From the UHGV virus genome UHGV-0136745: a stretch of DNA of 24,121 nt; one strand, 5' to 3'. The notes below the pieces were generated by a model. It was not told the origin of the DNA. It searched no databases and saw only the letters and a list, made by a program, of their open reading frames with translations. Origin of the DNA: a virus. The first letter of the stretch is position 1; every line of letters begins with the position of its first letter. Below are positions 1 to 22,277 of the stretch, in pieces. A program made the translations under genes and the position numbers.

Positions 1-330
1 TACAACCCCCGAAGTATTAGCCTTGTTCCTTGTCGTGTTGCGGTTGTTATCAATCTTAGCTACTTTTCTCAAGTTTAATATTCTATTGTCATCCCTTATG
101 TGATTTATATGGTCTATCTCAAATCCTGTAGTCAGAACATCATTAGGGTTGCACATATCCCAAATTATTCTGTGAACAGGGATATGCTTGTTTTTATGTT
201 TCACGCGCACGTACCCATCGCGCTCCTTTGTGCCTGCTACTAAACTTCTTTTTGCACCCCTACGCCACTTTTTCCATGATAGTACCCCGGTATTGTGGTC
301 GTAATTGAAAATCTCATCCCAATAGGTCAT
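1..330 (-). CDS. HNH homing endonuclease (HNH_3-like), 3' end cut by window edge
   Basis: Reverse-strand translation from ATG at 330..328 gives MTYWDEIFNYDHNTGVLSWKKWRRGAKRSLVAGTKERDGYVRVKHKNKHIPVHRIIWDM...IDHINHIRDDNRILNLRKV..., the HNH_3 pattern (GY.V...H..VHRIIW...IDHIN...DNR..NLR). Open to position 1. ATG overlaps the helicase stop (ATGA). Absent from ORF track because no stop lies in the window. Confidence 0.7.
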   Translation of the reverse strand, partial: MTYWDEIFNYDHNTGVLSWKKWRRGAKRSLVAGTKERDGYVRVKHKNKHIPVHRIIWDMCNPNDVLTTGFEIDHINHIRDDNRILNLRKVAKIDNNRNTTRNKANTSGVV

Positions 331-1751: not shown

Positions 1752-2427
1752 GGTTAGCCTCGTAAACTGCTTTTGCGAAACCACGCGGAGTTAACGAGCG
1801 GATTACCTTAGTGCGCGCGCTCTTGCCCCCCAACTTCTTGTGCTGGTCAGAATACCCAGCACCAACGGCAACGGGCTTAACCTCCGGCATAACGAAGCCG
1901 TTGCCAACCCACAGACACGTCTTTTTAGGATACGCATCTCGCGGCTTTATGTACTCGGGGAAGGTCGGGTGTGTATCATCCTCTGGCAAGTAGCCGCCGT
2001 ATTCGAACGGGTCAAACGTATAATCTGGCTTACGCCACATAGAGGAAAGCACGCTAACCGGATTCTCAATCATATACGGCACGTTGTATTTCTTCGCCAG
2101 ACGAGCCGCTACTTTACATGTGATAACTGCTTCAACCTGAAACGTTGCATTCTTTTTACGCTTAGCTTCAAAATGCGCAGCCCCGCTTACAGCAAGGTCA
2201 GTACACGGCGGGAACGCGAAAATAATATCTGGCGCTACGTCGAAGTCGAACTTGTTATCAATCCATGCGTTTACATAGTGAATATTCTCGTGCTGAACCT
2301 TAGCGCCGGCAGTGTTGTAGTCGCCGTGGTCGGCATCATCGTAATTGAAACAATAGCAAGTATGGCCTGCTTCCGCCCACGGCTGGACCATAAGGCCCGA
2401 ACCGTCAAACAGTGACCAGATAATCAT
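1744..2427 (-). CDS. DNA (cytosine-5)-methyltransferase-like protein, unusually compact (227 aa)
   Basis: Motif I-like SLFDGSG (FxGxG AdoMet site), motif IV-like FPPCTDLAVSG (catalytic PC), motif VI-like MIENPVS (ENV), C-terminal RSLTPRGFAKAV resembling the R.LTPRE.AR element. Far shorter than typical C5-MTases; no obvious target-recognition domain. ATGA overlap with upstream ORF. Confidence 0.55.
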   Translation of the reverse strand: MIIWSLFDGSGLMVQPWAEAGHTCYCFNYDDADHGDYNTAGAKVQHENIHYVNAWIDNKFDFDVAPDIIFAFPPCTDLAVSGAAHFEAKRKKNATFQVEAVITCKVAARLAKKYNVPYMIENPVSVLSSMWRKPDYTFDPFEYGGYLPEDDTHPTFPEYIKPRDAYPKKTCLWVGNGFVMPEVKPVAVGAGYSDQHKKLGGKSARTKVIRSLTPRGFAKAVYEANHV

Positions 2428-2615
2428 TTCAGCACCAGCACCAGTTCTTTACGCCCGAACGCCGTAACGTTACCTGTTACGTCCTCGATAACCAGTTTAC
2501 CGTTCGACTCGACGAACACCGTATCAACGGCGACAGGCTGGCGCGTCTTAACGTTGAAAATCATGTCACCTGGTACGATGTCACGTGCGGGTTTGCGGTC
2601 ATATTCGTGTTTCAT
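2424..2615 (-). CDS. hypothetical protein (63 aa)
   Basis: ORF in operon orientation; stop overlaps start of the MTase-like gene (ATGA). No recognisable motif. Confidence 0.45.
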   Translation of the reverse strand: MKHEYDRKPARDIVPGDMIFNVKTRQPVAVDTVFVESNGKLVIEDVTGNVTAFGRKELVLVLK

Positions 2616-2645
2616 TTCTCAATTCCTTATATTGTTGGTGTATGA

Positions 2646-3038
2646 CTAACTATAATAGTTTGCTATTAGGTCGTCAACCTGTTTGAACGAGCCAACGACA
2701 AAAACATTTGCGCCACGTTTACGCATCCGCTCATGTTCCCGTAGCTGGTGAGGGTCTGGCTTCGTGTTTTCGTCTTTCTTTACCTCGACGAACCAGATGA
2801 TGCCGTCGGGGAGAATTACCAGCAGGTCGGGGGCGCCTATTCTATTTTCGTACGACAACTTACGAACGAGGCCCCCGATGGCCTCGAATCGCTCTTTTGC
2901 GTATTTCTGAATCTTGCCTTCCGGGGTCATTAACCGATTATCCTGCTGAAAATAGCCGCGCCCAGTAATAAAGCTACAAGTACAGCGATTATAGTTATCA
3001 TAATACGCACCCCTCGCGTTTAGTATGTTCAATCCCAC
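2646..3038 (-). CDS. VRR-NUC domain nuclease (PD-(D/E)XK fold)
   Basis: C-terminal region GAPDLLVILPDGIIWFVEVKKDENTKPDPHQLREHERM matches the VRR-NUC signature (D...E.K plus downstream Q). Start uncertain: GTG at 3038 or internal ATG at 2930 (MTPEGKIQKY). Confidence 0.6.
   Translation of the reverse strand: MGLNILNARGAYYDNYNRCTCSFITGRGYFQQDNRLMTPEGKIQKYAKERFEAIGGLVRKLSYENRIGAPDLLVILPDGIIWFVEVKKDENTKPDPHQLREHERMRKRGANVFVVGSFKQVDDLIANYYS
2649..2677 (-). promoter_or_regulatory. sigma70-like promoter (reverse strand TTGACG-17 nt-TATAGT) with embedded palindrome AATAG-N4-CTATT
   Basis: Reverse complement of 2649..2677 reads TTGACGacctaatagcaaactatTATAGT. Same architecture as the sites at 6152..6180 and 8998..9026. 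Lies inside the last codons of the VRR-NUC gene. Confidence 0.45.
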
Positions 3039-3083
3039 AGCGCGGACAGATTCGGCAGTCTTCTTCGTAGAACCAGTAAATTT

Positions 3084-3215
3084 TCATTCCAGCACCCACA
3101 GATAAATTGCGATTAACATACGCAATACGGCGACCATCATGCCGTACTGGCCCTCGTGACAGTAGACACCGGCGGCGAATCCCGCCAGTGCTGTGACAAT
3201 CAGTTTACTTAGCAT
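3084..3215 (-). CDS. possible small hydrophobic membrane protein (43 aa)
   Basis: Reverse-strand ATG at 3215..3213 gives MLSKLIVTALAGFAAGVYCHEGQYGMMVAVLRMLIAIYLWVLE, stop at 3086..3084. Overlaps the polymerase 3' end by 11 nt. Below ORF-track cutoff. SD weak. Confidence 0.3.
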   Translation of the reverse strand: MLSKLIVTALAGFAAGVYCHEGQYGMMVAVLRMLIAIYLWVLE

Positions 3216-5406
3216 AACGTTTCATCTCCGCGCCTTCTGCGACTAAAGGGAACCCCTCGGCCCACTCAGGCAATGCGCACATTAATTTTTCCAGCTCAGC
3301 CACCGTGTACTCCGGTGTATCCGGGGTTTCGCATACCAGTTCATCGTGCACAGAAAGCACGATAGGATACCCACCACCCTCAACATTAACCATTGCATAC
3401 GCAAGTAAATCACGGCACAGCGCCTGAACAATGTTTTCACAGGCCTTGCCGCCGTGTGTGTACAGGGTGGTCCATTGGCGGGTTAACTGGTTTTCACCCT
3501 GGTATTTGATTCGCACATTTGTGTTTACCCGTCCGTCTTCGTCGGTTTCTTTTGTCACACTAACGCCGATTCCTGGATACGATAGAATCCGAGCCGACGG
3601 CAACTCCATACACAACCACCAACCGGGAACTTTCCTGCCGGACGAATCGGTTTCTACTGTTCTCCAGATTCGGATGGCGCGTTCACCATTCTTGCGCAGA
3701 TGCGCCCCTGCCCAAAACTCACGACCCGGATTTCTTACAGCGGCTAAAATTCCATCTTTAAGGTCGCGCCAGAAAGCTACTGTTTCCGGGTGTGACTCAC
3801 GCCACATACGCTTGATCGCGTCGCATGTACGCCAGACTTTCTTATCAAGAATATATGAAGGTCTGTCATCTTTTTCACCGGGACGCGGGGGGCGCTTGGC
3901 TTCCTGAATACGTGCCCACTCGTAACCCCGTGCCGTAGCGGCCCATATATGGTCAGGGAAAGTCCCGTCCATTGTTTTTGCCATCTCAATAAGGTCAAGA
4001 CCTAGGTTTTTAGCAAACGTAACGAACGCTCCTACGCCCCCCTCATAGCCTAGGCCAAGCTCGCAAGCCTTGCCTATCTGTCTGATTTCCTTGAAGTTTT
4101 TCTTAATGTCATCTGGGTCCATGCCGAACATCTTACCTGCGGTTACACAGTAAATATCCAGTCCGGCGCGGAACGTATCGAGCGCGGTTTCTTCTCCTGC
4201 CAGCCATGCCAACCCGCGGCCTTCGACGTTAGAGTAATCGGCGACGACAAACTTATGTCCTGCTTCCGGGATAATGCAGCTACGAACCGTCGATGCCGTT
4301 AGTTTGGCTACGTCAAAACGGCGATGCGCGCGCCCCTTAAGTAGCGCCGCAATTCCTTTATCCAGTTCATCGTCATGATAGTACCCGCGCGCCAGGTTCT
4401 GTGGCTGGAAGCCTTTACCCGCCCATCGCAGAGTACGTTTCGCCCCGCCGTACTGCAAGCAACCACGGCGGCGGTCGTCAGAAGAACGGCCCAACAGCAG
4501 GGGGTTATATTTCGTAGACGCAGTTGACGCCGCGCCCAGGCGCATTTCTATAATCGTGCGCGCATCGTCCGGTAAATCCTCGTCCGCCAGCAGGTCATGA
4601 AGTGTTGACTTCTGCGCATTGTGAATGCGGTGAGCGGGGGCCAGTTCACGCAGAATCGGCAGGAAGTCTTTGCCGGTTAGCGAGCCGCCGTATTTACGCT
4701 GAGCTTCTTCCTGCAACTGCGCCTTGTGTTTCTCTACGGCTTCAATCGCGGATTCCGCCAGAGCGACATCAACCTTAAACCCACGGTCGTTGATTAACTG
4801 GTCCAGTTCCAGAACCCGGTCCTCGAACTCGGAGTTACCCCAACGCGGCAGCTTGTGGAATACTTCACGCATCGCTGTTATGTCGCTCACGGCGTACTTG
4901 ATGAACAACGCCCACTCGTCCGGGTGCGTTTCGGCAGTGTAGCGACGGATTTTATAGTTCTTCGGCGTAGGTTTAGAGAAACGCTGAATCAGCGCCTTGC
5001 CTCGTTTGTCTTTTGCATTGTCCGCAGATACCCCAAGCACTTCACACAACGCATCGAGTGACCCCGGCAGCGCGTGGCGAAACGCCCAAATCATCGTATC
5101 AATGGTGTTGCTGACCGGAATATCGAAGTCCCAGCAGTGCTTCATGATGAGACGGTCGAACATTGAGCCGTTGTGCCAGACCATCTTGATACGGCTGTTC
5201 GGCTTAACCAGGCGGCGCAGTGCACGGTGCAAATCGCCTGGCATGTCGCTGCCGTCTGTGCAATCCCATACCTGAACAGGTTCATCGTCGAAGGCGTAGG
5301 TGCAGATAAGCACTCCGGTAGTCGGGTGTTCGGCGTAGGCATAGGAGCCGACTTTCTTCAAATCGGCTTCGGAGAAGGTTTCAAAGTCCAAGAACAGGTA
5401 ACTCAT
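3205..5406 (-). CDS. DNA polymerase, family A (Pol I-like) with 3'-5' proofreading exonuclease domain
   Basis: 733 aa. Exo I motif FLDFETFS near N-terminus; polymerase motif A VVADYSNVEGRGLAWLAGE, motif B RQIGKACELGLGYEGG (K...YG), motif C LSVHDELV. Confidence 0.9.
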   Translation of the reverse strand: MSYLFLDFETFSEADLKKVGSYAYAEHPTTGVLICTYAFDDEPVQVWDCTDGSDMPGDLHRALRRLVKPNSRIKMVWHNGSMFDRLIMKHCWDFDIPVSNTIDTMIWAFRHALPGSLDALCEVLGVSADNAKDKRGKALIQRFSKPTPKNYKIRRYTAETHPDEWALFIKYAVSDITAMREVFHKLPRWGNSEFEDRVLELDQLINDRGFKVDVALAESAIEAVEKHKAQLQEEAQRKYGGSLTGKDFLPILRELAPAHRIHNAQKSTLHDLLADEDLPDDARTIIEMRLGAASTASTKYNPLLLGRSSDDRRRGCLQYGGAKRTLRWAGKGFQPQNLARGYYHDDELDKGIAALLKGRAHRRFDVAKLTASTVRSCIIPEAGHKFVVADYSNVEGRGLAWLAGEETALDTFRAGLDIYCVTAGKMFGMDPDDIKKNFKEIRQIGKACELGLGYEGGVGAFVTFAKNLGLDLIEMAKTMDGTFPDHIWAATARGYEWARIQEAKRPPRPGEKDDRPSYILDKKVWRTCDAIKRMWRESHPETVAFWRDLKDGILAAVRNPGREFWAGAHLRKNGERAIRIWRTVETDSSGRKVPGWWLCMELPSARILSYPGIGVSVTKETDEDGRVNTNVRIKYQGENQLTRQWTTLYTHGGKACENIVQALCRDLLAYAMVNVEGGGYPIVLSVHDELVCETPDTPEYTVAELEKLMCALPEWAEGFPLVAEGAEMKRYAK

Positions 5407-5425
5407 TATTTCGACCCTTAGTAAA

Positions 5426-5445
5426 AAGGCCCAATAAAGGGCCTT
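5426..5445 (-). terminator. putative intrinsic terminator/attenuator between SSB-like gene and DNA polymerase
   Basis: Reverse strand RNA forms stem AAGGCCC/GGGCCUU with a 6-nt loop, followed by a U-rich tract (UUUUUAC). Located in the 58-bp gap between two co-directional genes. Confidence 0.4.
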
Positions 5446-5464
5446 AATTAAACATATTCAGATA

Positions 5465-6094
5465 TTAACCACGGCGACGACGTTCGCGGCGCGGTGCTTC
5501 ATCTTCTTCGTCGTCTTCCAGGTCATTGACGCTGGCCGCAACTTTAGAACCACCGAACGCTTTACCCTCGCCGACATATTTAATCGCCAGCAGGTTAACA
5601 CCGAGAACTTTGTACTTCTGGCTAAACCAGACTTCCACGCTTACGTTAGCAACGCAGCCGCTGTAAACCTGTTCACCTTCAATCTGTTCACCTTCGACAT
5701 TGAAGTCTGGCTCTACCTGAGTTTCACCTTTTTTAGAGGTTACAATCAGAGGTTGTTTCTGCGCCTTCGCTTTGAAGTAGAAACCTTCAGGGAAGTCTTC
5801 AAAAGGATTATCACGCTCGGCGATGTCCTTAATAGCACATTTATCCATGTGCTTGCCTTCGCCGTAGTTTGACTTCATCCACTTCTCGGCAGCGGCGGCC
5901 CCCAGTGCTTCTTCTACAACCGCGTAAACGGTGTCGTACATTTCGTCGATTTGCGCATGGTCAGACGGCAGGATGATAGTGGCGCTGTACTGACCTTTAG
6001 TGATAGAGCCATCGTCGTTTTCACGGTCTTTTTCGCGTTCGAATACGTTAACCCATGCAGTGTTTACTTTACGCAGATTTAATTTCAGTCCCAT
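5465..6094 (-). CDS. putative ssDNA-binding protein (DUF2815-like by architecture)
   Basis: 209 aa with acidic C-terminal tail (NDLEDDEEDE) then a basic end. Sits between a Cas4-like nuclease and Pol A, the position usually occupied by DUF2815 SSB proteins next to DUF2800-type nucleases. Assignment rests on context and composition. Confidence 0.45.
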   Translation of the reverse strand: MGLKLNLRKVNTAWVNVFEREKDRENDDGSITKGQYSATIILPSDHAQIDEMYDTVYAVVEEALGAAAAEKWMKSNYGEGKHMDKCAIKDIAERDNPFEDFPEGFYFKAKAQKQPLIVTSKKGETQVEPDFNVEGEQIEGEQVYSGCVANVSVEVWFSQKYKVLGVNLLAIKYVGEGKAFGGSKVAASVNDLEDDEEDEAPRRERRRRG

Positions 6095-6151
6095 TTGATT
6101 TCTCGCTTTTAAGTTTCGTTTACTCCGGGAGCTGCCCGGCCAGTGATTAGA

Positions 6152-6180
6152 ACTATAATAGCTAACTATTCAGTAGTCAA
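6152..6180 (-). promoter_or_regulatory. sigma70-like promoter (reverse strand TTGACT-17 nt-TATAGT) with embedded palindrome AATAG-N4-CTATT
   Basis: Reverse complement reads TTGACTactgaatagttagctatTATAGT. A CCGGG/CCCGG hairpin lies in the predicted 5' UTR (6126..6140) ahead of the SSB-like gene. Confidence 0.5.
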
Positions 6181-6184
6181 CACT

Positions 6185-6367
6185 TTATTCTAAATCTTCT
6201 TTCTTACACATCTCTAAAAAGGCTTTGTACGAGGTTATTCTAAATACCCGGTCAACAGCCTTAGACTTGCTTCTGTGAAGAACATGCACTAGTCCTCTTT
6301 TCTTTCGGGCCATAAACTCATCTAAATACGCCCGGCGCAATTGCTCAACTGTACTTGATTTACTCAT
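6185..6367 (-). CDS. hypothetical small basic protein (60 aa)
   Basis: ORF 6185..6397; start placed at internal ATG 6367 (MSKSSTVEQLRRAY), which overlaps the nuclease stop as ATGA. Confidence 0.45.
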   Translation of the reverse strand: MSKSSTVEQLRRAYLDEFMARKKRGLVHVLHRSKSKAVDRVFRITSYKAFLEMCKKEDLE

Positions 6368-7611
6368 TCTAAATCCTCCTCTGTTACCTGATTCCACTCA
6401 GGCCGTTTGTCGTCTGCCGTTGCTACGCACGGTGCACCTGGCTTACGTGTGATGAAGTCTTTCAGTTCTTCTTCCGGTATAACCTTAACCGCTTCGCTCG
6501 GCGTCATGAGAACAACTTTGTTTAGCATAGTGCCGTATGCCTCAGCCACCTTGTCAGCGTCTTTCCACGCACGATTACCCGGACGACCTTCTACCAGCTT
6601 GTAACCCGGCACTTTCTTACCGGAATGCAACGCGGCAGCCATAGCTTTCTCAACCTTGTCGATGTGCTGGCGCAACAACGGCAACTTCTCATACTCAGCG
6701 ACGAGTTGCTCAAGTGTCAATTCCAGCGCGAAGTCGTCCTCCAGTTCTTCTGCCAGTACCGAATTAACCGTCTTCGTTCTGGCGGCACACTGTTCTGAGA
6801 ACCTACACCACTGGCAACCGTCCGCCGACGGCTTGAAGTCCGACGCTTTCAGGTTCTTCTTACCGCGGAAGTACGCATCGAGTGCTAACAGCGCGCGTTT
6901 CTGTGCGAACTTAGCGAACAGTTCAAGACCTTCAACCGAGATATCCCACTCCGACGCACCACCGGCATACGGCTGGAATATGACCAGACGAACAGTTGTT
7001 ATGTTATAACGTCTCTTGAGTCGGCGATAAACACCGAGAGCATAGAGCATAAGCTGCTTGTTTTCTTTCGCTTCTACACGATGCCGTCCTGTTTTCAGGT
7101 CGCCGATAATGAGCATGTGTTCGTCAGTGTTCGCCAGTTCCTGAACGGCAACGAGGTCTGCAGTTCCGAATGTCTCAACGCCTTCGTATCCCGGATGCAG
7201 TACCTCAGTAAGATTGACGCGCATTTCAAGCTTGGCGTAAGTCGCTACGTCGATAATAGCTTTGCAGTAGTCGGTATACTTTCGCACCTGCTCAATCATG
7301 TCCGCTGTAATCAGTACCGCGCCTTCCATCGGGCTGATTAGCGCCTTAATCTGGCCTTTACCTTCATCCAGCACGTAAGCGCCGACTTCGCGTTCTAACG
7401 GCAGCGCAGTGCCCCGGATATAGGCGTTTAGGTGCACTTCTGCTATTGTATGACATGCGGTCCCCGTAACGGCAGCTTTACCGGATGTGTTCGGGATGTC
7501 TTTTTCACAGGCCAGTGATGCGGCACAGGTAAGCCACTTTTTAGCACCTGATGGCGACAGTAAGGCGTGCACATCGTTATTGCCGCCGCGTTCTTTTAGC
7601 TTCATGCTCAT
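6364..7611 (-). CDS. Cas4/RecB-family PD-(D/E)XK exonuclease with Cys cluster (DUF2800-like)
   Basis: Motifs ADLVAV...IIGDLKTG (D / D.K nuclease core) and C-terminal CQWCRFSEQC plus N-terminal Cys, consistent with a 4Fe-4S Cas4-like nuclease. Start at 7611 (ATGA overlap with upstream 50-aa ORF) or 7626. Confidence 0.8.
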   Translation of the reverse strand: MSMKLKERGGNNDVHALLSPSGAKKWLTCAASLACEKDIPNTSGKAAVTGTACHTIAEVHLNAYIRGTALPLEREVGAYVLDEGKGQIKALISPMEGAVLITADMIEQVRKYTDYCKAIIDVATYAKLEMRVNLTEVLHPGYEGVETFGTADLVAVQELANTDEHMLIIGDLKTGRHRVEAKENKQLMLYALGVYRRLKRRYNITTVRLVIFQPYAGGASEWDISVEGLELFAKFAQKRALLALDAYFRGKKNLKASDFKPSADGCQWCRFSEQCAARTKTVNSVLAEELEDDFALELTLEQLVAEYEKLPLLRQHIDKVEKAMAAALHSGKKVPGYKLVEGRPGNRAWKDADKVAEAYGTMLNKVVLMTPSEAVKVIPEEELKDFITRKPGAPCVATADDKRPEWNQVTEEDLE

Positions 7612-7760
7612 AAGTTCCAACCCCATTTAACTTTACGCGTTTTGCGTTTGCAGGCAACCGTGTCGCCGCTACGGTTGAAAATAATCAGCCAAGTTGAGTT
7701 ACTCACTCGAAAAGGCTGGTGACGTCTAACAAATAGAAGTCGCGCTTTACGGTTCGTCAT
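7608..7760 (-). CDS. small basic protein (50 aa), unannotated in ORF track
   Basis: Reverse-strand ATG at 7760..7758 preceded by GGAGG (spacing 7). Translation MTNRKARLLFVRRHQPFRVSNSTWLIIFNRSGDTVACKRKTRKVKWGWNL. ATGA overlaps at both ends with neighbouring genes. Confidence 0.45.
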   Translation of the reverse strand: MTNRKARLLFVRRHQPFRVSNSTWLIIFNRSGDTVACKRKTRKVKWGWNL

Positions 7761-8029
7761 ACCCTGACCTCCCACTGGTCAATTAAATGTCGTGTCTTAT
7801 GGTCACAATGCATCGCCCAGCTATACATTGATTCGAAGACATAAAAGTCAGGCTTAGCGAATGTCGTGCGCTTAATCTGCGACAGGTGACGGCCTATATC
7901 TTTCGGCTTCGGTACTTTTCCTAGGTAGGCCATCTCTTCCATCTGGTGCGCACCCGACGGTGCACGCAACAGCCACAACGCCTCTGTGTTATCTCGTCGG
8001 TCGATGCCGCGGTAGAGTTGGTAAATCAT
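7757..8029 (-). CDS. hypothetical protein (90 aa)
   Basis: ORF in operon orientation, ATGA overlap with the upstream 75-aa gene. No recognisable motif. Confidence 0.5.
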   Translation of the reverse strand: MIYQLYRGIDRRDNTEALWLLRAPSGAHQMEEMAYLGKVPKPKDIGRHLSQIKRTTFAKPDFYVFESMYSWAMHCDHKTRHLIDQWEVRV

Positions 8030-8253
8030 TGATCTTCCTCCGCTTCCTCCGCTTCCTCCGCTTCATCTGCGGCAGAAATAAGCGCTTTGGCAAGTTCTCG
8101 CGCCATGTCTGGGGTGTATTCCATAAACGACAGCCCTGTCATTTCGTCGGCTGGGTCAAAATCTAGTGTTACTCTTTTTTGCTTGCCCTGTATGGTGTTG
8201 CGCACCTCGAGGCTAACTCTGGCTTCATCGCTGTTAATATCTTTAACAATCAT
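8026..8253 (-). CDS. hypothetical protein with C-terminal (EAE)n acidic tail
   Basis: 75 aa ending EAEEAEEAEEDQ, encoded by a tandem 9-bp DNA repeat. Confidence 0.5.
   Translation of the reverse strand: MIVKDINSDEARVSLEVRNTIQGKQKRVTLDFDPADEMTGLSFMEYTPDMARELAKALISAADEAEEAEEAEEDQ
8037..8066. repeat. tandem 9-bp repeat (cctccgctt x3) inside a coding region
   Basis: Plus strand tcctccgcttcctccgcttcctccgcttc; encodes the EAEEAEEAEE tail on the reverse strand. Confidence 0.8.
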
Positions 8254-8270
8254 ACCTTGACCCTCTGTTT

Positions 8271-8294
8271 GCTGCCCTCACTAATGAGGGCAGC
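8271..8294. other. perfect 10-bp stem, 4-nt loop hairpin in intergenic gap
   Basis: gctgccctca-ctaa-tgagggcagc; no adjacent U/A tract on either strand. Lies between the acidic-protein gene and the next leftward gene. Confidence 0.6.
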
Positions 8295-8307
8295 ATATGT
8301 TAAGTGG

Positions 8308-8808
8308 TTATTCTTCTTCGAAATACTTGTTCTTAATCGCCGTCAGGCGTTCCAGGTATTCGGCCAGGTCTTCGTCTTTAATCGCGGCAATCTTCATCTT
8401 CTTACCGGTGAACTCTTCCAGCAGTTCATCGGAGTCGTCACACGCGGCATCGCTCGGGCCTTCGTTAATCGCATCGTCGATAGCCTGAATCTGGTCACGC
8501 AGAGACTGGTAATCGACTTCTTCTTTATCCTCTTCCGGCTCTGGCGCAGGATCCTCTACCTTAGCTTTACGTTGCTTGCGCTTCGGTTTCTCTTCTTCCG
8601 CCGGTTTAGTGTCGATAACTTCTTCACCTTCTACCGGGATTTCTTTTGTTACTTCTTCGGCGCACTCGGATACCTCTTCTTTGGCATACACTACCGTCTC
8701 TACTTCTAAAGGCGCTGCAACTTGTGCTGGCTGTTTCGCACTGTTAGCTGCAATCAGTTCATGTGCAACTACGAAACGTTCCAGTAATTTCAGAAATTGT
8801 TCTAACAT
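8308..8808 (-). CDS. highly acidic early protein (166 aa), function unknown
   Basis: Strongly Glu/Asp-rich (e.g. VEDPAPEPEEDKEEVDYQ, SDAACDDSDELLEEF, ends YFEEE). AGGAG SD 8 nt upstream of ATG 8808. First sizeable gene downstream of the leftward promoter at 8998..9026. Confidence 0.6.
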   Translation of the reverse strand: MLEQFLKLLERFVVAHELIAANSAKQPAQVAAPLEVETVVYAKEEVSECAEEVTKEIPVEGEEVIDTKPAEEEKPKRKQRKAKVEDPAPEPEEDKEEVDYQSLRDQIQAIDDAINEGPSDAACDDSDELLEEFTGKKMKIAAIKDEDLAEYLERLTAIKNKYFEEE

Positions 8809-8851
8809 TATTTGTTCTCCTGTTTATAAGTGTAAGTTTTAGATAAATATA

Positions 8852-8965
8852 TCAATTACGTCTATTTATGTAGTCTGATACCGTGTCCTTAACTAGCACA
8901 CATACTACATACATCAGGATTGCTATCGACGCTAGTAATACTATTGTTATGCTATCTGTGTGCAT
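8852..8965 (-). CDS. possible small membrane peptide (37 aa), unannotated in ORF track
   Basis: Reverse-strand ATG at 8965..8963 preceded by GAGAGGAGAG SD. Translation MHTDSITIVLLASIAILMYVVCVLVKDTVSDYINRRN has one hydrophobic helix-length stretch. Lies in the leader between promoter and acidic-protein gene. Confidence 0.35.
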   Translation of the reverse strand: MHTDSITIVLLASIAILMYVVCVLVKDTVSDYINRRN

Positions 8966-8997
8966 TTTGTTTCTCTCCTCTCGTTTGGTATGAGCTA

Positions 8998-9026
8998 ACT
9001 ATAATAGCAAACTATTCACCTGTCAA
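8998..9026 (-). promoter_or_regulatory. sigma70-like leftward promoter (TTGACA-17 nt-TATAGT) with embedded palindrome AATAG-N4-CTATT
   Basis: Reverse complement reads TTGACAggtgaatagtttgctatTATAGT: consensus -35, 17-nt spacer, near-consensus -10. Divergent from the HTH gene promoter. Confidence 0.55.
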
Positions 9027-9029
9027 CGC

Positions 9030-9058
9030 TTTTTATCAAAAAATTAATATGCTACTAT
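9030..9058 (+). promoter_or_regulatory. putative rightward promoter for HTH gene (-10 TACTAT, weak AT-rich -35)
   Basis: gCTACTATTCAcaTATC at 9051..9067 matches the -10 and downstream part of the 12546 and 13921 promoters; upstream is AT-rich (TTTTTA) rather than a good -35. Confidence 0.35.
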
Positions 9059-9089
9059 TCACATATCAATCAGCTAAGGAGTAACCATT

Positions 9090-9314
9090 ATGCAACAGTC
9101 ACCAATTGGCGCTCGTATGGAGCAACGCCGTAAAGAGCTTGGCCTGTCCCAGCGCCGTTTAGCTACTCTGGTCGGCGTTTCCCAGGGGGCGATTAACCAA
9201 CTTGCCCTCGGCGTAACTCAAGATGTCCGTCGCACCACTCTGTTTAAACTTGCGGAAGTTCTCGAAGTTAAGCCAGAGTGGTTAGCTTTCGGTGACCAGA
9301 CTCAAGGGGCTTAA
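9090..9314 (+). CDS. HTH-XRE family transcriptional regulator (Cro/CI-like)
   Basis: 74 aa; ELGLSQRRLATLVGVSQGAINQLALG is a classic XRE helix-turn-helix. AAGGAG SD upstream. Only rightward gene in this region. Confidence 0.85.
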   Translation: MQQSPIGARMEQRRKELGLSQRRLATLVGVSQGAINQLALGVTQDVRRTTLFKLAEVLEVKPEWLAFGDQTQGA

Positions 9315-9329
9315 CGCCCCTTTCTTTTT
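9305..9329 (+). terminator. intrinsic terminator after HTH gene
   Basis: AGGGGC-ttaac-GCCCCT stem-loop overlapping the stop codon, followed by TTTCTTTTT. Confidence 0.55.
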
Positions 9330-9331
9330 AC

Positions 9332-11596
9332 CTATTCCAAATCCTCCTCAGTCACTACCAGCATTTCGTTCGGTTCGTACACGGTCTTCGGTATCTTGCT
9401 GTCGTTAATCCTGGTGTTTAGCCTGTATCGCCCAGGTATTATCTGATTGTTCTCGTCAGTACCGGGTACAAGATATCCTGCTTCAACCATTTTCTTAATC
9501 TTACCGCGCTCTATAGCTTCCTTAGAGTTGAACGCCTTTGCATTAGGGTCAGACTGCGCAAGCTTATTAGCTGCGGCTACTGTGATACCTTCGTTGCCGT
9601 TGTAGGTTCCCTCCGCCAGTTCAAACGCAGCCAGTATCGTGGCTTCTGAACTGTTTACTGCGTTCTCTACGGTTTTTCGTACATTTTCTTTACCTTCCTT
9701 TGTCAGCCCTTCTTCCTTCTCTTTCTCTTCGTCAGTCTTGAATGGCTCAAAGCCCCACGGCATCAACACGAGCGCCTTATGTGGCTCCGGTAGGTCGAGG
9801 TTTACGATTGTGCCGTATTCCTCGGTGCTGCCGATGAATTCTACCGCGCGGTACGCCTTCGGAGGAGGGGCTTCACGGAACTGTACTGACTCCAGCACCA
9901 TGCCAATCGTTTTCTGTTGCGGCCCGTGCTTAAATTTAGTGTGTGACACGTTAATCTGGCGGTCGGTTGCACGTTCAATTGTCAGTTCCACATCGACACC
10001 CGCATACAGCGCACCACTGCCACGGGCTTTCTTTCCACCTTTTGGCGTGTGATGGACCACACCAACGGCGGCTTTAGTCGCGTCGCGGACTTCTTTCAGT
10101 ATGGCTATAACTTTACCCATACCGATTGCCGTTGATGAACTATTCTCGTCGAACTTATCAATCGTCAGGGCCAGCGTCTGGTTAAGGGTGTCGAACGCAA
10201 CCATGCCAATTGGCTCATCGCCAGCAGTTTCGCGCATCAGCTTAATCAGGCTTTTCAGTTTGCCGACGTCGCCCATATCGATAACGTGGATGTAGTTCTT
10301 CCCTTCCTCTCCGTACTTAGCCGCGAGCGCATCAATACGTGTGCGCGTAGCTGCACCGCCCTCACCATCGATATAAAAGTGATGGCAGCGTTGGGTGTCC
10401 GCACCTGCAAACCGATATCCGGCAGCGCTCAGGTACATCATGCCAAGGGTGTAGAAAGACTTATATGTGCCGGACTCACCGACAATATCCCAGATACAGT
10501 CCGACGGCATATAGCCCTCGACGACGAAATCGGCCTTTACCGGTTCCGGTAAATCGTCTTCCTCAGAGTCGTCGTCTTCCAGGTCGTCAAGGCTACATTC
10601 GACCGTTTCACGTGCACCCCAGCCGATGGCCTCAGCGACTTCACTGAACGGCAGCCCTGTCGCTTCGCAAGCGTATTTCCACACCTCTTTCGGCGACATC
10701 CCCTCTGTTGCCGTTAGGTCGGTGTCGTGAATCATGGTTACGTTAGGCGCAGCGTAGCCCTCGCGCGGGAAGCACAGCAGGAAATCATCCGGGCGCGGTG
10801 TCGGGTCACTGTAGTTCTCGGCGTGCTCAGGCGTCGCTGGCATCTTCAGACCACGTGGTGTAATGACACCGCCATACTCGAATGCCAGTGCTTCGAACGC
10901 GTCCGTAAACGCTGTGCGCAGTTCTTCCGGTATCTGGTAGTCGGATGCGCTGCTTACCTCGTAATCCGGGACTCCTTCCAGCAGACGGTCAGGGTCAATC
11001 ATGCCATTTCGGCGAGACCAGACGACCTCAGAGTTAACTGGCGGCAGGTACATCGGCTGGGACAGGGTAAACCCGCTGCGGTCAGCACCCATGCCTTTAA
11101 AGAAGTGCTCCAGCAGCCCGTGGCGGACGCGGATGATATCACCACCCTCTACCGGACGCGCCAGCGGCATGACGACACGGAAACGCGGTGATTCGTCGGT
11201 GTGTGATGCCGTGGTGTAAAGGCACATTGCTACACGGCTGCGCTTAACCAGACGCACAGCTTCCTGATACTCTTCTGGCGTCGCGCTGTCAAAATCCAGA
11301 TAAGCCAGTGACGATTTACTTACTGACGCGTCACAGCGGTAGAAGAAGCCCCGTCTCGCCTGTTTAAACTCGCCCGTTTCCGGGTCTTTCACGGTGCTGT
11401 GTGTTGAGCCGCACGCGGCAGTAATGTACCCCGGCGCGGTCTTTGGGTTAATCCCGTCACGAACGGCGTCAAGTGGCTGGATTAACTCTTTAAGGTCGTC
11501 CAGTGTTGCCGTGTGAGTGGTTCTGACGTTTATATCCTTTTTCTCCGCCCGCGCGTTGCGGCGAGACCATGAATAGGATAAAATTACATCGGACAT
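9332..11596 (-). CDS. DNA primase/helicase (primase-polymerase N-terminal region plus RecA-fold helicase domain)
   Basis: 754 aa. Walker A-like VGESGTYKSF, later VVHHTPKGGKKARGSGALYAGVDVEL (RecA/DnaB-like helicase motifs), acidic linker (DDLEDDDSEEDD). Size and position fit phage primase-helicase fusions. Confidence 0.8.
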   Translation of the reverse strand: MSDVILSYSWSRRNARAEKKDINVRTTHTATLDDLKELIQPLDAVRDGINPKTAPGYITAACGSTHSTVKDPETGEFKQARRGFFYRCDASVSKSSLAYLDFDSATPEEYQEAVRLVKRSRVAMCLYTTASHTDESPRFRVVMPLARPVEGGDIIRVRHGLLEHFFKGMGADRSGFTLSQPMYLPPVNSEVVWSRRNGMIDPDRLLEGVPDYEVSSASDYQIPEELRTAFTDAFEALAFEYGGVITPRGLKMPATPEHAENYSDPTPRPDDFLLCFPREGYAAPNVTMIHDTDLTATEGMSPKEVWKYACEATGLPFSEVAEAIGWGARETVECSLDDLEDDDSEEDDLPEPVKADFVVEGYMPSDCIWDIVGESGTYKSFYTLGMMYLSAAGYRFAGADTQRCHHFYIDGEGGAATRTRIDALAAKYGEEGKNYIHVIDMGDVGKLKSLIKLMRETAGDEPIGMVAFDTLNQTLALTIDKFDENSSSTAIGMGKVIAILKEVRDATKAAVGVVHHTPKGGKKARGSGALYAGVDVELTIERATDRQINVSHTKFKHGPQQKTIGMVLESVQFREAPPPKAYRAVEFIGSTEEYGTIVNLDLPEPHKALVLMPWGFEPFKTDEEKEKEEGLTKEGKENVRKTVENAVNSSEATILAAFELAEGTYNGNEGITVAAANKLAQSDPNAKAFNSKEAIERGKIKKMVEAGYLVPGTDENNQIIPGRYRLNTRINDSKIPKTVYEPNEMLVVTEEDLE

Positions 11597-13586: not shown

Positions 13587-13628
13587 TGTTATATTGTAAC
13601 AATAGTTTGGGATTTTACTGAGTGACTT

Positions 13629-13666
13629 ACGCTGCTACACAGCAGCGTATCATTTTTCTCATTTTT
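13629..13666 (+). terminator. intrinsic terminator
   Basis: Perfect 8-bp stem ACGCTGCT-acac-AGCAGCGT followed by atcaTTTTTctcaTTTTT. Confidence 0.6.
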
Positions 13667-13719
13667 GTTCTATTTCACGAAACGCAACAATCGAAGCGAC
13701 TATTGCAGGAGATGCAACA

Positions 13720-13890
13720 ATGAAACCAAATGACATCGTAACCTGGGTCGGGCGTAACGGAGAAAAGCGATTCGGTCTTATCGTAGCTACCAACGGCAAC
13801 ACGTATCGGGTTATGCGCTGGCGACAGTGGGCTAAGAGGCCGAGGTACTACTGGATTAGAGAAGAGAGACTTTCTCTTAAACACCAATAA
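13720..13890 (+). CDS. hypothetical small basic protein (56 aa), unannotated in ORF track
   Basis: ATG 13720 preceded by GCAGGAG; translation MKPNDIVTWVGRNGEKRFGLIVATNGNTYRVMRWRQWAKRPRYYWIREERLSLKHQ. Preferred over antisense ORF 13675..13887, which lacks an SD and opposes operon direction. Confidence 0.4.
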   Translation: MKPNDIVTWVGRNGEKRFGLIVATNGNTYRVMRWRQWAKRPRYYWIREERLSLKHQ

Positions 13891-15544: not shown

Positions 15545-15853
15545 TTGGATAAATTTACTGAAACTGTGACAGGCTGGCTTCTGGCTGCCGCACTAGCTGG
15601 CGGAGTAATAGGCCTACGGCAACATAAAGCCACTATTACCGGCCCTGTCGATGCTCTCTGTTTTCTCGCCACTGGCTTTGCGTGTGCCGTATTCGGTGCG
15701 CCTCTCGCCGCTCAATGGTTCGGTATCGCAGGTGAACGCGAAATAGCGGGCCTTGGGTTCATCATTGCTATTCTCTGGATGCCGATTTATTCCCGTCTCT
15801 CTGGCATTGTCGCCGGAGAATACATCGCACGTCGCGGAGGTAGCAATGACTGA
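15545..15853 (+). CDS. holin-like protein, three predicted TM segments (class I-like)
   Basis: 102 aa; hydrophobic stretches TGWLLAAALAGGVIGL, ALCFLATGFACAVFGAPLAAQWF, IAGLGFIIAILWMPIY; charged C-terminus. TTG start with GGAGG SD. Directly upstream of lysozyme. Confidence 0.55.
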   Translation: MDKFTETVTGWLLAAALAGGVIGLRQHKATITGPVDALCFLATGFACAVFGAPLAAQWFGIAGEREIAGLGFIIAILWMPIYSRLSGIVAGEYIARRGGSND

Positions 15854-16127
15854 GTTATTCTGGTTTGGCGGTATGCTCGCAATCGGGGGCACATCGCTGT
15901 TTAATGTATACCACCCCAGCGTAGATGATGGCCTGTTTGGGCGTGTGCTGTATATCCTCACTGCTATTGTTTGCGCCGCCGGTTGCATCCACCTGCTACA
16001 GGGCAGCATGTCACCGACGCTGCCGGAAACATTAATCACCCTGGTAGCGCTGCGACAGATTCGCCAGTCGTGGCTGCATTACCAGTCGAAAGGAGGGCAT
16101 AAGCGTGTCTCGAAACATTTCAGATAA
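15846..16127 (+). CDS. second holin/antiholin-like protein, two predicted TM segments
   Basis: From internal ATG 15846 (overlaps upstream stop): MTELFWFGGMLAIGGTSLF..., LYILTAIVCAAGCIHLL, basic C-terminal tail. Track ORF starts at 15753. Confidence 0.5.
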   Translation: MTELFWFGGMLAIGGTSLFNVYHPSVDDGLFGRVLYILTAIVCAAGCIHLLQGSMSPTLPETLITLVALRQIRQSWLHYQSKGGHKRVSKHFR

Positions 16128-16590
16128 TGGCTTGCATTTCTGCGCCGAGTTCGAAGGCTTCCGTGGAACTGCGTACCGCGCTACGCCGGATGAGAAGTAC
16201 CTGACTATAGGCTACGGGCATTATGGCGCAGACGTTAAGCCTGGTCAGACTATCACGCCGGGGCAAGGCCTCCTGCTACTCAATCGCGATATGGCTAAGG
16301 CGGTAGCCGCCGTTGATGCCGCGGCGCATCACTCACTGACGCAGGGCCAGTTCGACGCAGTATGCGACCTGGTGTTTAACGCAGGTGCTGGCGTTATCGC
16401 GGCTACTACCGGTACTGGTAAGGCCCTGCGCGCAGGTGACATTGCTACGCTGCGGGCTAAGCTGGCGCTGTTTATCAACCAGAACGGCAAACCGTTACTC
16501 GGCCTGCGCCGCCGTACAGCCGGGCGTCTGGCATTGTTCGACGGTAAACCGTGGCAAGAGGCGGTTGCTATCGGGAGGGCGGTAAAATGA
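16105..16590 (+). CDS. endolysin, GH24 lysozyme (T4 e / lambda R-like fold)
   Basis: N-terminal GLHFCAEFEGFRGTAYRATPDEKYLTIGYGH carries the Glu...Asp...Thr catalytic arrangement of phage-type lysozymes. GTG start with AAAGGAGGG SD. No TM segment, so holin-dependent. Confidence 0.85.
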   Translation: MSRNISDNGLHFCAEFEGFRGTAYRATPDEKYLTIGYGHYGADVKPGQTITPGQGLLLLNRDMAKAVAAVDAAAHHSLTQGQFDAVCDLVFNAGAGVIAATTGTGKALRAGDIATLRAKLALFINQNGKPLLGLRRRTAGRLALFDGKPWQEAVAIGRAVK

Positions 16591-18331: not shown

Positions 18332-18502
18332 ATGTTCGATAATATTGACGCAGCAATCGAAGAAGCAATCTGGCGTCGCCACAACGGCGAGCAACAACGA
18401 CACTTCTGCCTCGTGCAGCGCGGTAACATGATTGCCGTGGTGCAGGACAGAGATAATAAATACCCAAATGCGATGTGGACGACGAGGAATTTCTTAGGAT
18501 GA
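18332..18502 (+). CDS. hypothetical small protein (56 aa), unannotated in ORF track
   Basis: ATG 18332; translation MFDNIDAAIEEAIWRRHNGEQQRHFCLVQRGNMIAVVQDRDNKYPNAMWTTRNFLG. Preferred over antisense ORFs 18273..18651. Confidence 0.4.
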   Translation: MFDNIDAAIEEAIWRRHNGEQQRHFCLVQRGNMIAVVQDRDNKYPNAMWTTRNFLG

Positions 18503-18735
18503 TTACCAGCATTCCGAACCTGATTAAAGAATACGGCACGATGGCGGAGACATGCCGACAAACCGGCATCAACGAAATGACGATTCGCAAGTACAGCAAA
18601 GACGTTGATTGCGAGCGCCATGTAATTTATAACAACCGTCTCATGACACACGTTAAGACAAGCCCGGTGCTATTCACGCGCCGTGGCGTCACGAAGACTG
18701 AGCAACGCATTGCACGAGAGGAGAGTGAGGAATGA
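18499..18735 (+). CDS. hypothetical protein with possible HTH (78 aa)
   Basis: Start ATG 18499 overlaps upstream stop (ATGA); AETCRQTGINEMTIRKYSK resembles a helix-turn-helix. Confidence 0.45.
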   Translation: MITSIPNLIKEYGTMAETCRQTGINEMTIRKYSKDVDCERHVIYNNRLMTHVKTSPVLFTRRGVTKTEQRIAREESEE

Positions 18736-18836
18736 AACTGTTAATTATCCCGAACGCCTGGGCAATCGCGGTAGCCAACGACCACTACGGCGGCGATGGT
18801 AAAAGAGCACCGCGACACGGTTTATACAACTGATAC

Positions 18837-18862
18837 AAGCCCTCTACGGAGGGCTTTTCTGT
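18837..18862 (+). terminator. intrinsic terminator before packaging genes
   Basis: AAGCCCTC-tacg-GAGGGCTT followed by TTTCTGT. Confidence 0.55.
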
Positions 18863-18954
18863 ACATCCCGCCCAATCCCCTTATATAATCCCTTTAGACG
18901 CGTAGGGCGCGTCTGATGCGCTCTGATGGTCAGACGCATATGTCAGGGGGTTAT

Positions 18955-19500
18955 ATGAAACTTACACTTAAGCAACCATCACCTGAGGTGGTGAAAGCTG
19001 CGCATGAAGAAGCTGTTAGCGCCAACCGTCGCCGTAAACGACCACGCGGCAAACAGAGCCTTTATCAGTCATCCCGTAATTCCGCTGCGTTGTGGAACCC
19101 GGACTATTGCGACGAGTTAATCCGGTTCTTTGACCGTAACTCGTGGGAACTCGTACCTACGTCCAAGGGTGACGAACGCCCACTGATTCAGGACAAACCC
19201 CCGTCACTGGCCCGCTTCGCCTTACACATTGGCGTCACTATTCCGATTATTAAGCTGTGGTTACGCGAGATTCCGGCGTTTGCAGAAGCTTATGAAACAG
19301 CTCAGGCGCTGGAAGAGGCCTATTTCACTGAGACAGGGGCAGCGGGTATATCCGCCACGTTTGCTGCCGCTAAGCTGGGCTTAAGCAAAGAGAAACCGGT
19401 TGAATCTACCGAAGAAACGGCACCAACTGAGATTGTGTTCACCGTAGCGGAGCCTGTAGGTAAAATCGTTACAACGAACATGGGTGAGGTAGAGGAATGA
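18955..19500 (+). CDS. terminase small subunit (putative)
   Basis: Immediately upstream of, and overlapping (ATGA), the terminase large subunit; contains HTH-like LARFALHIGVTIPIIKLWLREIPAFAEAYETAQ. Start at ATG 18955 (GGGGG SD); track ORF starts 18916. Confidence 0.6.
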   Translation: MKLTLKQPSPEVVKAAHEEAVSANRRRKRPRGKQSLYQSSRNSAALWNPDYCDELIRFFDRNSWELVPTSKGDERPLIQDKPPSLARFALHIGVTIPIIKLWLREIPAFAEAYETAQALEEAYFTETGAAGISATFAAAKLGLSKEKPVESTEETAPTEIVFTVAEPVGKIVTTNMGEVEE

Positions 19501-22251: not shown

Positions 22252-22273
22252 AGCCCCGAAAGGGGCTTTCTTA
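22252..22273 (+). terminator. weak terminator/attenuator hairpin between portal and head morphogenesis genes
   Basis: AGCCCC-gaaa-GGGGCT followed by TTCTTAT (short, interrupted U tract). Confidence 0.35.
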
Positions 22274-22277
22274 TAGT

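Follow-up and report, generated by a model that had tools for sequence, protein, structure and literature searches.

The window analysed here is the complete 24,121-nucleotide (nt) stretch of the virus genome UHGV-0136745, and the element in question lies in the short intergenic region in front of terS, the gene for the small terminase subunit. Along the plus strand, this region presents a covarying rho-independent terminator, a conserved sigma-70-type promoter, two adjacent hairpins that together span 44 nt (18896–18939), and the Shine-Dalgarno (SD) sequence and start codon of terS. The hairpins constitute a strand-specific, covarying, single-copy structure that is fixed between the −10 hexamer of the promoter and the ribosome-binding site of terS, and they probably act as RNA, as a promoter-proximal structured 5′ leader of the terS–terL–portal–head mRNA. 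A first-pass annotation had marked the same spot as a nested palindrome and suggested either a late-promoter activator site or a TerS recognition (pac) element; it is partly supported, in that the spot is real and biologically meaningful and its context was read correctly, while the geometry and both mechanisms need revision.

The strings listed by that annotation were found in place, namely AGACGCG/CGCGTCT (18896–18902 and 18908–18914), GCGTCTGA/TCAGACGC (18909–18916 and 18930–18937), and TATAAT (18884–18889), which stands 6–7 nt before the element, with the terminator hairpin (18837–18856) and its T-run further upstream. The position directly in front of terS is likewise correct, AGGGGG (18945–18950) preceding the ATG at 18955. 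A direct repeat, (T)CTGATG, does occur twice (18912 and 18922) as described, but it is not conserved in relatives: at the first copy most Kagunavirus relatives have CTGGTG and Cornellvirus has CTCATG, at the second ATGATG or CCGATG occurs elsewhere, and the invariant part is confined to GAUGGUC at the apex of hairpin 2. Statistics on the single sequence were modest. Perfect inverted repeats with loops of 3–15 nt numbered 35 in the window for arms of at least 7 nt (20.9 ± 6.4 in dinucleotide shuffles) and 11 for arms of at least 8 nt (6.6 ± 3.0), pairs of such repeats with starts no more than 40 nt apart were no commoner in the window than in shuffles, and the RNA fold of 18896–18939 reached −22.1 kcal/mol (z = −3.2), modestly better than shuffles. 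Palindromes of such size are common in the window alone, and the signal is comparative.

Relatives were gathered from 49 IMG/VR loci retrieved via TerS, from pattern scans of IMG/VR and metagenomes anchored outside or partly inside the hairpins, and from GenBank records of distant genera. In a MAFFT alignment of 21 distinct hairpin sequences, 98.5% of the cells were paired, compared with 92.6 ± 0.8% in column shuffles (0/500), and the covariation score was 0.237, compared with 0.138 in shuffles (0/500); slid controls were 16–58% paired. RNAalifold, run unaided, returned the identical structure of two adjacent hairpins. With a model-based alignment of 30 distinct sequences, both sides had changed in 12 of the 19 pairs (6.9 ± 1.2 in shuffles; 0/500) and 96.3% of the cells were paired (84.5 ± 0.9% in shuffles), while slid controls were 18–56% paired with at most four double-changed pairs. 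Nine clade representatives were also folded singly, and the minimum free energy (MFE) structure of every one had the two-triloop architecture. This covariation support suffices for the definition of a new RNA family.

The substitutions also distinguish the strands. Among 563 scored cells there were 57 G·U and 4 A·C combinations, which assigns the constraint to the plus-strand RNA; read as such, 96.3% of the cells were paired, against 86.9% for the minus strand and 86.1% for a symmetric duplex. The G·U pairs are fixed clade-wide, including a tandem G·U/U·G in hairpin 1 of Cornellvirus, GUGUCU in many Jerseyviruses, and a loop-closing U·G in Kagunavirus, whereas the A·C cells are confined to four sequences, one in each.

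The MFE fold and the comparative data thus replace the nested geometry with two hairpins lying side by side (Table 1). Hairpin 1 may gain an additional pair, U18895·G18915, and the stem of hairpin 2 reads UGCG[C]UCUGA-UGG-UCAGACGCA, the bracketed C being bulged. The second inverted repeat, GCGTCTGA/TCAGACGC, is an alternative pairing without covariation, in which pair 23–43 is broken in 13 of the 21 variants and pair 25–41 in 7 of the 21. It is lost because C:G at 18923/18933 became A:U by a double change within hairpin 2 in Jerseyvirus and Cornellvirus, the copy in the 3′ arm of hairpin 1 remaining unchanged; further compensatory double changes in hairpin 2 were found in Dhillonvirus, eiAU, and Tsm2. 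As an attenuator-like alternative conformer, the same pairing was rejected on its absence of covariation and its disruption in most clades. A covariance-model search of the window found a single copy (18892–18939, plus strand, 73.9 bits), the runner-up being its own reverse strand (E = 0.17).

Table 1. Coordinates of the hairpins, their flanking signals, and the surrounding genes in the window.
Feature	Position	Strand	Description	Basis
Hairpin 1	18896–18914	+	AGACGCGU-AGG-GCGCGUCU; 8 bp including U18903·G18907; triloop 18904–18906	MFE folds, RNAalifold, covariation counts
Hairpin 2	18916–18939	+	Lower stem 18916–18920/18935–18939; bulged C18921; upper stem 18922–18926/18930–18934; triloop UGG 18927–18929	MFE folds, RNAalifold, covariation
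SD sequence of terS	18945–18950	+	AGGGGG	In every clade, an SD-like purine run 4–9 nt upstream of the terS ATG
Predicted transcription start	18896	+	A, seventh nt after the −10 hexamer	Promoter geometry; purine here in all clades
−10 hexamer	18884–18889	+	TATAAT (TACAAT in Jerseyvirus)	Present in every clade
−35 hexamer	18860–18865	+	TGTACA; 18-nt spacer	Promoter scan, 10/12 match
Rho-independent terminator	18837–18860	+	Closes the upstream small-ORF/lysis unit; stem AAGCCCTC / GAGGGCTT, loop TACG, then TTTTC	Inverted-repeat search
terS	18955–19500	+	Small terminase subunit, 181 aa	ATG 18955 taken as the true start
terL, portal, and head-morphogenesis genes		+	Follow terS, 3′ of the intergenic region under study	
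Small open reading frames (ORFs)	~2 kb after the endolysin	+	Last are the NinH-like gene (18475–18735) and a 33-codon ORF	
Endolysin	16105–16590	+		
Holins	15545–16127	+		
Replication genes	327–11596	−	Helicase, DNA polymerase, exonuclease, helicase-primase	

In the window, the SD sequence and the terS AUG begin about 5 nt past hairpin 2 and lie outside both hairpins; the SD sequence itself varies by clade (AAGGGGA, GAGAGGA, AGGAG, AAGGG, GGGGG, or GAGGUG). The direct U-run that completes the GC-rich hairpin of an intrinsic terminator or attenuator is absent, as GAUGCG follows hairpin 1 and AUGUCAGG follows hairpin 2, and a terminator scan found none on the plus strand at the two hairpins. Three other possibilities were rejected. 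Pairing of the −10 region (18883–18892) with the SD/start region (18947–18956), which would silence terS on read-through transcripts, was attractive where TATAATCC/GGATTATA becomes TACAATCC/GGATTGTA in some Jerseyviruses, but the proportion of paired cells was 76.2% (74.7% for shuffles), a single pair is disrupted in 26 of the 36 sequences, and neither eiAU nor Tsm2 has the pairing. The candidate sigma-70-dependent pause element, TATGAT within hairpin 2, is limited to the Jersey and Cornell clades, and the stems are too short for an RNase III site. As a side observation, TGATGGT at the apex of hairpin 2 (18924–18930) has a perfect inverted copy, ACCATCA, 44 nt downstream at 18975–18981 (terS codons 7–9).

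The same layout (terminator, −35/−10, 6–7 nt, hairpin 1, 0–2 nt, hairpin 2, 4–11 nt, SD, ATG) recurs in Kagunavirus, Jerseyvirus, Cornellvirus, Salmonella phage TS6, Serratia phage Tsm2, Dhillonvirus, and Eiauvirus. Covariance-model matches lay directly between TATAAT and terS in all of the Dhillonvirus loci that were examined and in Edwardsiella phage eiAU, TS6, and Tsm2 (E about 0.002–0.02 each), and the element was not found beside more distant TerS homologues (loci L299–L304 and Pectobacterium phage Taid). A 126-nt query matched 572 GenBank phage records at least partly, and for 350 of these the match extended over 80% or more of the query. TerS of the window is 24–28% identical to that of the aligned Cornellvirus, Dhillonvirus, eiAU, and TS6 representatives. 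For Cornellvirus, the local alignment covers just 18882–18947, that is, the −10 hexamer and both hairpins, at ~79% identity, with unalignable flanks and TerS identities of 24–30%; the element thus forms an island under purifying selection. What is kept is not the stem sequence. In Dhillonvirus, eiAU, TS6, and Tsm2, the hairpin 1 stem has been rewritten as AGAUGGC/GCCGUCU, AGGUGGU/GCCACCU, GCGGGCC/GGUCCGC, or AAGGCCC/GGGCUUU and the upper stem of hairpin 2 as GCCGA/UCGGC or UGGA/UCCA, whereas the hairpin 1 triloop [A/U/G]GG and the hairpin 2 apex GA-UGG-UC are unchanged throughout the clades. In one Jerseyvirus-type genome (IMGVR_UViG_641201315_000001, represented by L070 and L035, the ends of a single contig), the promoter spacer is of the Kagunavirus type (TCCCGCCCAATCCCCTTATATAAT) and the hairpins attached to it are of the Jerseyvirus type, which suggests a recombination junction inside the intergenic region.

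Known RNA families did not account for the element. The sole match of an Rfam 15 cmscan of 18700–19100 (E ≤ 10) was rsmX, upstream of the element, and no match on the element was obtained in the Zar3M, eiAU, Tsm2, and St162 loci at E ≤ 1. The rsmX match (18761–18859, covering the terminator and the last part of the 33-codon ORF) scored 17 bits compared with a gathering score of 56 (E = 0.55) and was judged to be due to chance.

The signals upstream of the hairpins are conserved as well. The terminator stem is compensatory between genera (CCTC/GAGG in Kagunavirus, CCGC/GCGG in Jerseyvirus, and GCCCGC/GCGGGC in Cornellvirus). TGTACA is invariant in Kagunavirus and Jerseyvirus, where the spacer falls to ~50% identity at constant length. 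Cornell-like phages and Tsm2 have TTGCC[T/A]-N17-TATAAT in its place, with unrelated spacers, and Dhillonvirus (L226 and L280–L298), unlike Guernseyvirinae, has an extended −10, TGnTATAAT (TGTTATAAT / TGATATAAT), with no recognisable −35; this extended −10 begins ~8–25 nt past the T-run of the upstream terminator. Hexamers 16–18 nt apart, or an extended −10, are thus kept while the spacer drifts, and in every clade 6–7 nt separate the −10 from the point at which pairing in hairpin 1 begins; the promoter is therefore taken to be real. Its geometry predicts the first transcribed nucleotide at A18896, at the base of hairpin 1. The eiAU sequence fits this geometry, as a 10-bp stem is possible in the DNA and a start 7 nt after the −10 would give a 7-bp RNA stem, as in the others.

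We therefore consider a structured 5′ leader RNA to be the probable identity of the element. In this mechanism, host sigma-70 RNA polymerase would start at about A18896, 7 nt past TATAAT, and the first 44 nt of the transcript would fold at once into two abutting hairpins (8 bp with an AGG loop; 5 + 5 bp with a bulge and a UGG loop), leaving the SD and terS AUG, ~5 nt later, free. A stem-loop at the 5′ end of an mRNA resists 5′-end-dependent decay (PMC3997798 and references in it), and a base-paired end with 0–1 free nucleotides may likewise shield the long late mRNA from RppH and RNase E. A plain stabiliser needs no invariant loops, yet the loops are fixed while the stems turn over; for this reason the [A/U]GG and GA-UGG-UC apices are proposed to form a docking surface, and the invariance speaks for recognition by some factor that the phages of E. 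coli, Salmonella, Serratia, Edwardsiella, and Sodalis all share. It could be RNA polymerase (in the manner of put RNA), a host RNA-binding protein, or the terminase proteins, and the docked factor would set the amount of terS and late message made or translated. The terminase genes are the only genes travelling with the element. Structured 5′ leaders are known as a general kind, and a leader-RNA family with an invariant double NGG-triloop design is undescribed.

Several points weigh against this reading. The wider alignment was fitted to the model and so favours the structure, whereas the MAFFT alignment and the single folds are unbiased but cover a narrower divergence or carry no statistics, and the small number of independent clades (~8) means that the shuffle counts overstate significance. 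In the window sequence taken alone, the minus strand folds nearly as well, so the plus-strand conclusion derives from the comparison. The promoter scan found no excess of sigma-70-like sites here over shuffles, and it is accordingly conservation that argues for the promoter; the terminator scan was likewise not enriched and has no weight by itself. No mapped transcript 5′ end for any of these phages was found in the searchable literature. Pure stabilisation leaves the invariant loops unexplained and the docking factor is hypothetical, while co-travel with one TerS family would also fit a terminase-related DNA function.

A broader claim can be made, although we regard it as rather unlikely: that the element represents a new class of self-acting leader RNA, with invariant NGG triloops read by the host transcription machinery or by terminase, which has so far gone unnoticed in hundreds of sequenced enterobacterial siphophages employed for phage therapy. 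The claim has two variants, protein-independent, put-like antitermination or anti-pausing of the late operon, and terminase autoregulation coupling TerS supply to packaging. The first of these can also be put as a specific version of the RNA-leader reading, in which the nascent double hairpin would bind RNA polymerase and allow read-through of terminators along the ~20-kb late operon with no protein antiterminator. The put RNA of HK022, a ~65-nt double hairpin anchored to the zinc-binding domain of the polymerase β′ subunit, also lies just downstream of a promoter and acts in cis on RNA polymerase (PMC8632103), and invariant loops favour recognition by a conserved partner such as the host enzyme. 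A target for read-through may exist on the same strand, where a terminator-like hairpin (22252–22267) follows the portal gene. When the model was run against the whole HK022 genome, however, the best match (E = 0.41) fell at 13684–13737, among moron genes of the tail region and a long way from the early control region, in which put sites are expected, and the present element is shorter, at 44–50 nt. Specific antitermination of this kind is, on balance, unlikely. The hairpin after the portal gene is an observation in its own right: it lies between the portal and head-morphogenesis genes (22252–22277 with its tail; AGCCCCGAAAGGGGCT, then TTCTTATAGT) and bears on whether the late operon needs read-through at all.

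The nature of the constraint is also what disfavours a pac site, in which the duplex 18896–18939 would be recognised by TerS on the concatemer and start a headful packaging series, as in SPP1. The element adjoins terS, co-occurs with this TerS family in six genera, and is present once in the window, as expected of pac, and headful packaging has been reported for these phages with no mapped pac site (PMC10783031, PMC9409062). But selection acts on pairing and not on duplex sequence, as seen in the 12 double-changed pairs and the G·U excess: the stems are rewritten with pairing kept, in the pattern of a plus-strand RNA. Variable arms around an invariant centre are the opposite of a protein site on DNA, so the pattern is not that of TerS or another dimeric binder. 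The element also remains ~79% identical where TerS is 24–30% identical, with gapped N-termini and almost no conserved residues in them, and a packaging function gives no rationale for the constant 6–7 nt to the −10 hexamer. For the close relative Snoke, the annotation in GenBank gives P22 as the HHpred match of this TerS; the pac of P22 is a 22-bp asymmetric sequence inside terS (gene 3), and that of SPP1 comprises several TerS contact points flanking the initial cut (PMC9611059), whereas the present element is a structured inverted repeat upstream of the gene. Published packaging assignments conflict, being P1-like headful (PMC10783031), random (PMC9409062), without termini (PMC9825357), or HK97-like 3′ cos by the TerL tree (PMC11641727), and none puts an end at the element; random or no termini were obtained by PhageTerm for several members (PMC9409062, PMC9825357). 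Deposited genomes that start near the element (−39, −10, −50, and −66 relative to terS) were considered as a hint of pac and attributed to annotators' conventions, and the breaks of metagenomic contigs in IMG/VR are placed arbitrarily with respect to terS. Taken together, a pac function is decidedly unlikely.

Binding of a regulatory protein to the DNA is highly improbable, whether as the late-promoter activator site that had been suggested or, more generally, as an operator through which a dimeric phage repressor or activator would time the late promoter. AGACGCG-N5-CGCGTCT is a perfect palindrome at +1 to +19, a position at which repressors such as LacI act, and a gene for a NinH-like (Fis-like) DNA-binding protein lies just upstream (18475–18735; PMC11641727). 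Activators, however, bind upstream of promoters, with sites lying upstream of or over the −35, and the element occupies +1 to +44. Half-site symmetry is lost through G·U-type single changes fixed in whole clades, and the fully rewritten stems of Dhillonvirus, eiAU, and Tsm2 leave only the loops invariant, which form the centre of the palindrome, the reverse of an operator. The upstream gene merits note separately. Its 86-aa product (PHROG 268), encoded two genes before terS, appears to be the NinH-like hallmark of the genus (PMC11641727); overlapping features in related records are labelled variously as NinH-like, zinc finger, transcriptional regulator, or Fur, and a DNA-binding protein gene placed directly before the late promoter could encode a regulator of that promoter.

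It is scarcely credible that TerS is instead translated from the ATG at 18916, with the AGG loop of hairpin 1 as ribosome-binding site and hairpin 2 as coding sequence for the N-terminus, even though Kagunavirus, Jerseyvirus, and Cornell type 1 all have an open frame in phase with terS over 18916–18955, AGG stands 9 nt before that ATG, and terS is annotated from it in GenBank for Snoke, Shemara, St162, FSL SP-031, and many genomes beginning 39 nt before terS. The two ATGs are 39, 39, and 45 nt apart in Kagunavirus, Jerseyvirus, and Cornell type 1, respectively, and 42 nt apart in the sister sequences L174 and L197, but in one Cornell-like subtype (L142, L152, L155, L187, L188, and L220) the spacing of 43 nt puts the upstream one out of frame, opening a dead-end ORF of 20 codons. 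Most Kagunavirus relatives have GTG in place of the ATG at 18916, and eiAU and Tsm2 lack the codon, so the translation that the first-pass annotation had named as its refuting case was not borne out. Substitutions between the ATGs are non-synonymous yet preserve pairing (S→Y together with Q→H), the downstream ATG retains its own SD, of changing sequence, in all clades, and position 1 of the PHROG 3064 terminase profile aligns to residue 1 of TerS begun at the downstream Met. From these comparisons we conclude that TerS starts at 18955 and that the hairpins lie in untranslated sequence, any overlap being with a short ORF that is not conserved. Annotated terS starts in several records (loci L124, L125, L126, and L127 among those concerned) are thereby corrected as 13–15 codons too early. 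In Kagunavirus, the AUG at the apex of hairpin 2 opens a 10-codon ORF (18926–18958, MVRRIC...) whose UGA overlaps the terS AUG (AUGA) in a manner resembling translational coupling; the corresponding ORF has just 5 codons in Jerseyvirus and Cornellvirus and is probably incidental.

The window as a whole belongs to a virulent siphophage of Kagunavirus type, in the subfamily Guernseyvirinae. A 901-base segment centred on this region matched 470 GenBank phage records at 60–95% identity (Escherichia, Salmonella, and Kagunavirus entries) and had no match in any complete E. coli genome. Two further palindromes were noted outside the late region. At 8270–8295, a perfect 11-bp palindrome with a 4-nt loop lies between the minus-strand ORFs 7757–8029 and 8308–8808 and is probably a terminator on the strand of the replication genes. 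At 13628–13659, a strong terminator-like hairpin of 9 bp (TACGCTGCT-ACAC-AGCAGCGTA, then TCATTTTTCT) sits in a ~1.9-kb gap (12.2–14.1 kb) that contains no ORF of at least 80 aa and divides the divergent minus- and plus-strand gene blocks.

Guernseyvirinae and Dhillonvirus phages are widely isolated as therapeutic and biocontrol candidates. The literature describes no antiterminator or late activator for them, and the searchable literature holds no transcript map. The hairpins provide a specific cis candidate at the head of the packaging and structural operon, bearing on the timing of late expression, and wherever this junction is chosen for re-opening or engineering a genome, they advise caution against taking the palindromes as pac.

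Among known systems, the bipartite targets of CsrA/RsmA dimers show a superficial likeness, as two GG loops ~23 nt apart are followed by a GGA-containing SD; this identity was rejected because GGA is absent from both loops, which read AGG-G and UGG-U in all 30 distinct sequences. The nut sites of lambda and P22 (boxA and N-bound boxB) also place a small conserved hairpin with a sequence-specific loop in a leader. Kagunavirus CGCUCUGA matches lambda boxA (CGCUCUUA) at 7 of 8 positions, but the boxA-like string is base-paired in the hairpin 2 stem and clade-specific, other clades having CGCUAUGA, CGUUAUGA, or UUGCCGA, and both loops are triloops compared with the 5-nt GNRA-like loop of boxB; no N-like gene was identified, and a lambda-type nut site was rejected. 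Headful pac sites such as those of P22 and SPP1 share with the element a single cis copy linked to terS in a group reported as headful, whereas the known ones are duplex DNA without selected hairpin potential, and here there is strand-specific RNA covariation at a fixed distance from the −10. The putL and putR sites of HK022 resemble it in topology only, as a phage double-hairpin RNA after a promoter heading a long operon; they need no dedicated protein partner, and recognition here would similarly be by a component common to the hosts. The two differ in that homology is not detectable and that the present hairpins have NGG triloops and stand directly at the predicted +1 rather than further downstream, antitermination being in this case hypothetical. 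The stabilising stem-loops in the 5′ untranslated regions of the E. coli ompA and papA mRNAs (Emory, Bouvet and Belasco 1992, as cited in PMC3997798) are alike in placing a stable hairpin at or within ~1 nt of the 5′ end (here predicted) of a long mRNA, with the SD and start codon downstream. Those stem-loops act by structure alone and their sequence is not conserved, whereas the element described here combines two hairpins and a fixed bulge at a predicted 5′ end with loops and a hairpin 2 apex that are invariant across six genera.

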